64,000 nucleotides of DNA from Escherichia coli (GTDB lineage: Bacteria; Pseudomonadota; Gammaproteobacteria; Enterobacterales; Enterobacteriaceae), in the NCBI RefSeq assembly GCF_050920415.1, contig NZ_CP169309.1, one strand, 5' to 3'. Positions 42,301 to 45,300 of the stretch are shown here, piece after piece. The stretch's first letter is position 1; every line of letters starts with the position of its first letter. The position numbers were made by a program.

Positions 42301-45300
42301 CCCGTCCATCATCGCGTTGATTGTCGGTTTTATCGGCCTTCGTTACGGCAGCGACTCCCCGGAATCTTATGGCCTCGGCAAAGCTGAAGAACTGTTCGGC
42401 GAAGAGATCAGCGAAGAGGACAAAGAGACAGAATCTACCGATATGACCAAGTGGCAGATCTTTGTTGAGTATGTGCTGAAAAACAAAGTGATCTGGCTGC
42501 TGTGCTTCGCCAACATTTTCCTCTATGTGGTGCGTATTGGTATCGACCAGTGGTCAACCGTGTATGCGTTCCAGGAACTGAAACTCTCTAAAGCGGTGGC
42601 GATTCAGGGCTTTACGCTGTTTGAAGCTGGTGCGCTGGTGGGTACGCTGTTGTGGGGCTGGCTCTCTGACCTGGCGAACGGTCGCCGTGGCCTGGTGGCC
42701 TGCATCGCGCTGGCGCTGATTATCGCCACGCTCGGTGTGTATCAACATGCCAGCAACGAATATATCTACCTGGCTTCTCTCTTTGCGTTGGGTTTCCTGG
42801 TCTTTGGCCCGCAATTGTTGATTGGTGTGGCTGCTGTTGGCTTTGTACCTAAAAAAGCCATTGGCGCTGCCGATGGTATTAAAGGCACCTTCGCTTACCT
42901 GATTGGCGACAGCTTTGCCAAGTTAGGTCTGGGGATGATTGCCGATGGTACGCCGGTATTCGGCCTTACCGGCTGGGCAGGCACCTTTGCTGCACTGGAT
43001 ATCGCCGCGATTGGTTGTATCTGCCTGATGGCGATAGTGGCGGTGATGGAAGAACGCAAAATCCGCCGCGAGAAAAAGATTCAGCAGTTGACAGTGGCAT
43101 AAACGTAACTGGTGACTTTTGCCCGGCATGACGCCGGGCTTTTTTTATTATTCCGTGACTTCCAGCGTGGTGAAGGCAAACTTTTCACCATCAAACAGCC
43201 CCTGGCTGGTCAGTTTCAGTGCGGGGATAACTGGCAGGGAAAGAAACGCCATCTGAATAAACGGCTCATCCGGTAACGGACCACATTCACGGGCGGCAGC
43301 TTTCAATGCGTCAATTTGCTCCGCCAGCGACTGCGCCGTGTCGGTGCTCATCAGCCCGGCAATGGGCAATGGCAGATGGCTCTGTACCTGACCGTTACGT
43401 ACTACGCATAGTCCGCCGCCATCCTGAATCACCTGATTGACCGCCAGCGCCATCTCTTCAGCACTACGACCGATCACCACAATATTATGGCTGTCATGGC
43501 TGACTGTCGCAGCCAGCGCGCCTTCATTCAGGCCAAAGCCGCCGAGCAAACCACAAGCCGGAGCCAGCCGTTGCCCGTAACGCTCAAGTACGGCAATAAA
43601 GCACACATCATCGCGATCAAAACCATTTTCGCTGTAGATGCTGGAGCGGGAGTGCGTAATCAATTCGTTATGGATGACGTCAATGACCCGATAGCGTTTT
43701 CCGGGTGTGAATTGCAGGGCAAAGTCGCTGGCAGAAACTGGCTGGCGGGCAATGGTATTGCCATACGGCGGAGCGGATTGTGCCAGTCTTGCCGACTCTT
43801 CCGCCTGTAAGGTTTGCGCGTCAATCGGTTCGCCTTTCACCAGTACCTGCTGCACCGTGACCTTACGTGCATCGCTCAACAGGACGATATCGGCCTGCTT
43901 GCCGGGTGCCAGTAAGCCGAGGTGATTCAGACCAAAATGGCGTGCCGTTGACCAGCTGGCGACGCGATAAGCCACATGCAGCGGTACATTGTGTTGTTCG
44001 ATCAGGCGGCGAATTAAGGCATCGATATGCCCTTCATGGGCGATCTCCCACGGGTTACGGTCATCGGTGCAGAGCATACATTGCGGGCTGTTAAATTCGT
44101 TGAGCAACGGTGCCAGTGCGTTGAGATTGCGGGCAGCGGACCCTTCGCGGATCATCAACGACATGCCGAGTTGTAACTTCCGGCGACCTTCTTCCAGCAG
44201 ATAACTTTCGTGGCAGTTTTCAATACCCGCAGCAATATAGGCATTAAGTTCTTTACCGCCCAAACCCGGGCAGTGACCGTCCAGCGTCAGGTGGCGAAAT
44301 GCGTCCAGTTTATCGAGCAGCGCATTCTGTCCGCTAATTACGCCAGGGTAATCCATCATTTCAGCAAGGCCGGTAACCTGCGGATGGTCACGCCAGGCGA
44401 GCATCTGTTCAAGTGTAAAACTGGCACCGTTAACATCGCAGCCTTCCAGGGCAGGTACGCAAGAACTGACCTGCAAATACTGGTTTTGCCTTGCCTGTTC
44501 GGCACAGCGGGCAAACCAGGCGAATCCGGCTTCGCCCATCACGTTGACGATTTCATGGGGGTCGCAAATAACGGTCGTCAGGCCGCGCGGCAGGGTGGCG
44601 GTTTCAAAAGTAACCGGCGTCATCATGCTGGATTCAATATGCAGGTGAGCATCAATAAACCCTGGCACCGCCGTTGCGCCGCGTGCATCAATCCGCTGCA
44701 AAGCCGGAGCGTCAGCATATTCTGCGCCAACACCGGCAATGTAACGTCCTTTAATCACAATTGGCCCGGAAATTTCTCCGCCATTGATCAGATCGAGAAT
44801 AGAGACATTATCAATAATATAATCGGCAACAGCGTCGCCACGGGAAACGGCTAACAATTCCTGGTATTCAACCCGGCTAATGTGATGAAATTTATGGTTA
44901 ATGGAATTATTCATATTTTTCTCATTTTGATTTTATCAATTTGATTATTATTTATCATAAAGAAACGTCGCAAGATTATTAAAGAATATCCATTAATGTG
45001 CAATTGAAATGTGATAATTATCACTGAACCGTTGTTGTCATTTGTTTTACAAAAGCAAGGGATTAAATCTCCTCCAATGGACAAAAAAATGAATAATGAC
45101 AATACCGATTACGTGAGTAATGAATCAGGGACGCTTTCGCGATTATTTAAACTACCTCAGCATGGGACCACCGTCCGCACAGAATTGATTGCGGGGATGA
45201 CCACTTTTTTAACCATGGTGTACATCGTTTTTGTGAACCCGCAAATCCTCGGCGCGGCACAAATGGACCCGAAAGTGGTGTTTGTTACCACCTGTTTGAT

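Follow-up and report, generated by a model that had tools for sequence, protein, structure and literature searches.

The 174-bp stretch of DNA that separates ade from its divergent neighbour adeQ in Escherichia coli raises the question of what is contained in a short and very AT-rich region beside a gene that is described as cryptic. More generally, it bears on the old question of which natural conditions turn on cryptic genes that, like ade and bgl, are silenced by H-NS, a question that the observations presented here make sharper. The locus was analysed in strain MFDS1022581 (NZ_CP169399.1), in a window that covers the chromosome's first 64 kb and shares its numbering, where it is organised as follows:

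43148..44914, minus strand: adeD (ade/yicP), coding sequence of adenine deaminase (RefSeq annotation)
44915..45088, no strand assigned: divergent adeD/adeQ intergenic control region, 174 bp, 26.4% GC
45089..46423, plus strand: adeQ (yicO), coding sequence of an adenine permease of the NCS2 family (RefSeq annotation)

The interval 44915-45088, to which an earlier note on this DNA had drawn attention, coincides exactly with the gap between the two divergent genes. AdeD scores 1260.8 bits against the NCBIfam equivalog NF007457 (cut-off 768), and AdeQ has a match to Pfam PF00860 and shares 99% identity with its K-12 counterpart. Conservation was followed in an alignment of 11 sequences from Escherichia, Citrobacter, Kluyvera and Cedecea (alignment A2), in which five conserved blocks were distinguished. 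An ATG at 45077 is in frame with adeQ, but in Citrobacter R56 it is out of frame in this alignment, and position 45089 is therefore the conserved adeQ start. A 63-codon frame at 45102-44911 on the minus strand was considered as a hidden small gene and is unlikely to be real, as single-base indels between genera would shift the frame and the K-12 annotation does not contain it.

We consider it likely that ade and adeQ share a single control region which is silenced by H-NS and activated by CRP, and in which the insertion of an IS element relieves silencing. The feature as such is already known through published H-NS silencing and Crp activation. That ade is cryptic, H-NS-silenced and activated by insertion elements was reported by Petersen, Moller and Valentin-Hansen 2002 (J Biol Chem 277:31373), as cited in PMC2753651 and in PMC13274399 and its preprint, and by way of such citing papers the same study is reported to have shown H-NS occupancy in vivo and derepression of ade in an hns mutant of K-12. 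Silencing, IS activation and Crp binding and dependence are thus taken from published K-12 work, the H-NS part as relayed by the citing papers, and what we infer here is where the promoters lie, which CRP class applies to each and how far the H-NS patch reaches. The K-12 ade promoter region studied by Petersen et al. 2002 is the same locus with the same flanking genes, and its 174-bp spacer (MG1655 3,843,790-3,843,963) differs from the present one at a single base (44972, A here and G in K-12 MG1655). Because the spacers differ by only this one base, the K-12 experiments transfer to the present strain. The statement in the earlier note that ade is cryptic and H-NS-silenced is in agreement with the literature citing Petersen 2002, as far as that study can be followed through it, and a reader of the sequence alone had thereby correctly called a promoter of the textbook H-NS-silenced type. 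Cross-genus conservation and a survey of natural IS insertions are the additions made here to the study of Petersen et al. 2002.

The strong AT-richness that the earlier note described is real and exceeds what chance would give. At 26.4% GC the gap lies below the window as a whole (50.4%), and no more than 0.36% of the 174-bp windows in the 64 kb are at or below this value. Among 31 annotated intergenic regions the gap has the lowest GC outside AT-rich accessory islands, the single lower one being a 43-bp gap inside an AT-rich type III secretion island. The nine remaining divergent gaps in the window lie at 34.6-47.2% GC. The AT-richness spills over on both sides, covering about 100 bp of adeD and 60 bp of adeQ, and delimits the following patch:

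about 44800..45150, no strand assigned: full AT-rich patch (150-bp windows at or below 34% GC), likely the H-NS binding patch

Low GC is the usual sign of foreign DNA silenced by H-NS, and recent acquisition of the AT-rich DNA followed by xenogeneic silencing was considered on this ground. Other low-GC clusters in the window lie where the annotation lists hypothetical proteins and type III secretion genes, as would suit such an origin. However, the genes flanking the spacer have 54% and 48% GC, the gene pair and its spacer are syntenic and conserved in at least four genera, and 5414 of the 5426 E. coli genomes carry the locus. Recent foreign origin is refuted by this synteny and conservation across genera and by the presence of the locus in nearly every genome, and we give it next to no credence.

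Intrinsic curvature arising from helically phased A/T tracts might alternatively be the feature that H-NS recognises, and phased tracts were part of the earlier description of this region. This part of the description found no clear support, the periodicity being weak. AA/TT dinucleotides do show a maximum at 11-11.5 bp, which is marginal for the broader interval 44850-45150 (reached by 2.8% of dinucleotide shuffles), but 11% of shuffles of the gap itself reach the observed value. The gap holds just six A or T runs of four or more, the three T-tracts adjoining ade are spaced by 9 and 6 bp, and the periodicity of tract centres in the gap is indistinguishable from that of shuffled sequences. Recognition through phased curvature is accordingly regarded as improbable. 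Nor did a search of the gap for the high-affinity 10-bp H-NS motif TCGATAAATT yield a distinctive site, the best match being 8/10, TTGATAAAAT at 44930-44939 on the minus strand, which 58% of shuffles equal.

One transcription factor motif, and only one, stands out in the gap:

45010..45025, no strand assigned: CRP-type site TGTGATAATTATCACT, matching 9/10 core positions and with conserved half-sites

The site lies within the perfect 14-bp palindrome GTGATAATTATCAC (45011-45024). When compared with TGTGA-N6-TCACA it agrees at 9/10 core positions, a score attained by 0/500 shuffles of the gap. CRP sites with one mismatch number 2 in the whole window against 1.8 expected and are not above chance. 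The half-sites TGTGAT and ATCACT are invariant in 10/11 sequences from four genera in alignment A2, and the central 4 bp vary (AATT, TGCA, TGTA, AACT). As read from the alignment, invariant half-sites around a variable spacer are the classic footprint of a dimeric regulator. Both adeD and adeQ were newly validated as Crp-activated by RNA-seq across carbon sources, crp deletion and EMSA (PMC8085971). In the gap, the Fur box (19-mer, 7-1-7), the PurR box, the PlaR box of PMC6958661 and IHF sites scored no better than in shuffles. A gSELEX peak of PlaR (YiaJ) has been reported within the adeD/adeQ spacer; a convincing PlaR box was not found in the spacer, and the region of a GAAAC half-site is not conserved.

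The five blocks conserved in alignment A2 and the elements lying in them are:

44915..44958, no strand assigned: Block A, 44 bp, adjoining the ade start codon and nearly invariant across four genera
44930..44938, minus strand: extended -10-like sequence TGATAAAAT in Block A, candidate ade promoter element (scan: ATGATA-17-TAAAAT with TG), invariant in A2
44911..44925, minus strand: putative four-codon upstream reading frame, ATG AGA AAA ATA TGA, from reading of the sequence
44974..44991, no strand assigned: Block B, GATTATT(T)AAAG..TATC
45004..45028, no strand assigned: Block C, containing the CRP-type site
45043..45055, plus strand: Block D, TTTA(C)AAAAG, an adeQ -10-like element
45076..45081, plus strand: Block E, AATGGA, likely adeQ ribosome-binding site, with ATGGA invariant

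Block A contains the ribosome-binding region of ade and possibly a promoter, as far as can be judged from its sequence. In a consensus promoter scan of the gap, five promoter-like sites were returned for the ade strand, and the plus strand, that of adeQ, gave none. Block B overlaps a candidate ade -10 (AATAAT, 44980-44975) and a candidate -35 (TTAATA, 44982-44977). In all 11 sequences ATGGA of Block E lies 8-12 nt upstream of the adeQ ATG. A structured RNA or riboswitch in either leader was rejected, as no Rfam match was obtained and the folding z-scores were +0.69.

In class II CRP promoters the activator is centred at -41.5 from the transcription start and the -35 is weak or absent, and in class I promoters the centre lies at -61.5, -71.5, -82.5 or -92.5. 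With Block D as the adeQ -10, the CRP centre (45017.5) would be placed near -41.5/-42.5, i.e. at about -42, suggestive of class II; measured from the candidate ade elements it would fall at about -70.5 or -94.5. Transcription would accordingly be expected to start near 45059-45061 for adeQ and near 44947 or 44923 for ade. The candidate adeQ promoter resembles class II promoters in having TGTGA-N6-TCAC about 30 bp upstream of the -10-like element and no recognisable -35, and is unlike them in that its candidate -10-like element lacks the final T (TACAAA).

Since these blocks coincide with promoter-like, CRP and ribosome-binding elements, one may ask whether the AT-richness simply comes from a pair of promoters, the CRP site and leaders free of structure, with H-NS unimportant at the locus in this strain. 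Both leaders are indeed unstructured, and wild-type cells show detectable Crp-dependent expression (PMC8085971). Against this stand the published silencing by H-NS in K-12, as relayed by the citing papers, with a spacer that is almost identical, and the fact that the gap is far more AT-rich than the nine other divergent promoter regions of the window. On balance we find it very unlikely that H-NS is without importance here.

Under the preferred model of a shared, H-NS-silenced and CRP-activated control region, 174 bp would accommodate the promoters and untranslated leaders of both genes as well as a single CRP-cAMP site (45010-45025). With 60-100 bp added from the start of each gene, the gap would make up an AT-rich patch about 350 bp long. 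H-NS would coat this patch and keep ade nearly silent in laboratory conditions. When carbon is poor, CRP-cAMP bound at the central palindrome would activate both adeD and adeQ, probably as a class II activator for adeQ and a class I activator for ade. Insertion elements in or beside the patch would disrupt the H-NS complex and thereby turn ade on.

The closest analogue of such an arrangement is the promoter of bgl (bglGFB), which is AT-rich, carries a CRP site, is silenced by H-NS and is activated by IS1 and IS5, as ade likewise is by insertion elements. PMC2753651 places ade in one group with bgl. Unlike bgl, ade is without an antiterminator system, and its control region also serves a divergently oriented transporter gene, itself activated by Crp. 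Further reports are of interest with regard to activation of the gene. Evolution experiments on adenine cross-feeding again enriched for IS elements inserted upstream of adeD, and did so in two E. coli strains (PMC13274399). Where a kan cassette pointed at yicP, the resulting phenotype was credited by the authors to putative activation of yicP from the kan promoter, without a measurement of expression. Overproduction of TosR in CFT073 gave a value of 4.4 for yicP in the fold-change column of that paper, and several fimbrial operons were affected too; according to a prediction of the same authors, TosR acts against H-NS and Lrp and binds to AT-rich DNA.

The distribution of natural insertions was surveyed in 5,426 complete E. 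coli genomes by joining the locus to IS sequences as bait and mapping the junctions. IS1 and IS5 were used as baits in both orientations, and IS2, IS3, IS30, IS150 and IS186 in one orientation. Among the matches listed, the following events were mapped:

44745-44753, 44794-44802, 44873-44884 and 44887-44898: IS1, 5′ end of adeD
44851-44854: IS5 at CTAA, twice and in opposite orientations, 5′ end of adeD
44902: IS1 junction with a deletion through to nlpA, 5′ end of adeD
44743-45924: removed by a single IS1-linked deletion
45098-45107, 45278, 45319-45328, 45507-45519, 45543, 45637-45649 and 45953-45960: IS1 or IS5, adeQ

IS1 at 45098-45107 is carried by 1368KP, and IS1 within 44873-44902 by ET776, VTB97584v and TL-14. 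No IS element was found inside 44915-45088 among the matches listed from the 5,426 genomes, the IS1 and IS5 events lying at 44745-44902 and from 45098 onward. That none of the roughly 13 events mapped across 1.2 kb (again among the matches listed) falls in the spacer is at most suggestive of a depletion of IS elements there (p ~0.13 under a uniform model). Most of the events in adeD break the coding sequence and have the appearance of loss-of-function alleles rather than of natural activation. An orientation bias of IS1 was dismissed as an artefact of joining only pieces on the same strand: 7/7 mapped insertions at first pointed toward adeD, and the reverse-complement bait then found the opposite orientation.

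When species-representative genomes were scanned, the divergent adeQ-adeD pair turned up in several Escherichia species and also in Citrobacter, Kluyvera, Cedecea, Edwardsiella and Morganella. The gap measures 172-176 bp and has 25.6-29.1% GC in Escherichia, Citrobacter, Kluyvera and Cedecea. Its rate of change was set against that at the third positions of codons 1-100 of adeD and adeQ. Versus E. albertii, the gap is 98% identical and adjacent third positions differ by 25-32%; versus the other genera it is 69-81% identical and third positions differ by 40-51%. By this comparison of aligned sequences the gap is more conserved than the adjoining coding DNA. Within E. coli, the adeD and adeQ coding regions of the present strain diverge from those of K-12 with a dS of 0.17-0.19, but setting the spacer against whole-gene dS to K-12 proved misleading, as the allele is a mosaic and the two strains differ little near the spacer. 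Because of this mosaic allele, the comparison between species was relied upon.

Both genes are under strong purifying selection, with dN/dS of 0.03-0.04 for adeD and 0.006-0.03 for adeQ (0.006-0.044 over the two), and the low value for adeD implies that this 'cryptic' gene is maintained by selection. The locus is maintained and regulated, not decaying, and the region is no passive AT-rich sink but densely constrained and anciently conserved, with a conserved CRP site. The term 'cryptic' as used in the earlier note is thus in keeping with the published silencing, so far as the citing papers convey it, and incomplete in view of Crp-activated and carbon-source-dependent expression, purifying selection and a conserved spacer.

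Neither CRP nor non-specific H-NS binding explains the near base-by-base constraint of the spacer; H-NS binding does not normally need conservation of individual bases. The most conspicuous case is Block A (44915-44958), which adjoins the ade start codon and hardly varies over four genera although nearby third positions differ as given above, and its constraint is left unexplained by existing knowledge. One may speculate that this block serves an additional specific regulator, or else an element of translational control, and that this factor, instead of IS insertion, is the natural switch of ade; it would complement the shared control by H-NS and CRP. Consistent with this, the whole spacer is more conserved than flanking coding DNA within Escherichia, and adeD, being under strong purifying selection, must be expressed somewhere. 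Motifs for Fur, PurR, PlaR and IHF no better than chance, together with leaders that have neither RNA structure nor an Rfam family, speak against it, and a promoter, a leader and a ribosome-binding site overlapping in 44 bp might suffice to account for the constraint. The proposal is therefore put forward tentatively, as is the wider suggestion that an undiscovered specific regulator or anti-silencer (responding to, say, adenine, nitrogen or a host signal), or a translational device on the four-codon frame, may act in the spacer. If true, such a regulator or device would be the natural switch of 'cryptic' ade, and the 44 bp of Block A offer a defined target for testing. Within them, the stop codon of the four-codon frame overlaps the ade ATG (ATGA), and every base of this frame is invariant in alignment A2.

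A short reading frame lies directly ahead of adeD (adenine deaminase), on the same strand, with its stop codon overlapping the adeD start codon (ATGA):

44911-44925, minus strand, four-codon reading frame ATG AGA AAA ATA TGA

All bases of this frame are identical in the four genera of the spacer alignment, Escherichia, Citrobacter, Kluyvera and Cedecea. Judged from the sequence, the overlap of stop and start could reflect translational coupling of the frame with adeD, or it could be a coincidence.

The start regions of adeD and of the divergent permease gene adeQ make up a 37-nt inverted repeat, which pairs 44894-44930 (adeD side) with 45073-45109 (adeQ side) at 73% complementarity. 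Both genes open with ATGAATAAT (Met-Asn-Asn), and ahead of each opening stand an A-run and a ribosome-binding site of the GA type; the ATGAATAAT opening is conserved in Escherichia, Citrobacter and Cedecea, but not for adeQ in Kluyvera. Within adeD, at codon 21, IS5 or ISKpn26 is inserted at CTAA (44851-44854) in NCTC10444 and EC-07, in opposite orientations. This is a single IS5 target that has been struck twice independently, in two unrelated genomes.

Compared with K-12 (L002), adeD and adeQ of MFDS1022581 (43148-46423) are unusually divergent, with dS of 0.17-0.19 and nucleotide identity of 95.5-96%, and the spacer and the starts of both genes are near-identical. Over 44600-45400, at least 99% identity to MFDS1022581 is found in only 19 of 5414 genomes. 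On these sequence comparisons the adeD-adeQ allele looks like a mosaic or recombinant. In the two Edwardsiella loci (L031 and L032), the spacer that precedes the ade homologue is longer and less AT-rich than the E. coli one; it contains AAGCGTTTGCGTTAC, the right half of which fits a PurR box, and also the CRP-like TGTGACAGACATCAAC. No PurR-like box comparable to that of Edwardsiella was found in the E. coli spacer.

Downstream of adeD, the K-12 annotation includes UhpU, a small RNA that covers the 3′ end of uhpT and reaches the adeD stop codon (here 42883-43148, plus strand); UhpU is unannotated in the MFDS1022581 record. The sole Rfam match on this interval was a weak, SorX-like one (43079-43146, E 0.1), under the gathering score.

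Elsewhere in the window, the AT-rich stretch between ilvN and uhpA (34715-37990), with several patches of 27-30% GC and two hypothetical genes, looks like an accessory island and is likely a further H-NS target. Between yicN and nepI, an interval of only ~210 bp in K-12, lies a helix-turn-helix protein and RelE/ParE-family toxin pair (47044-47704), and strain WCHEC040047 carries the same helix-turn-helix gene in this place. Directly downstream of gyrB is a frameshifted IS621 (IS110-family) transposase gene (6266-7245). The stretch 49325-64000 holds, in order, iatC (a 9.7-kb inverse autotransporter adhesin gene), eilA (a HilA-family regulator) and type III secretion tip/translocon genes, with several very AT-rich gaps and the GC minimum of the window near 63314.
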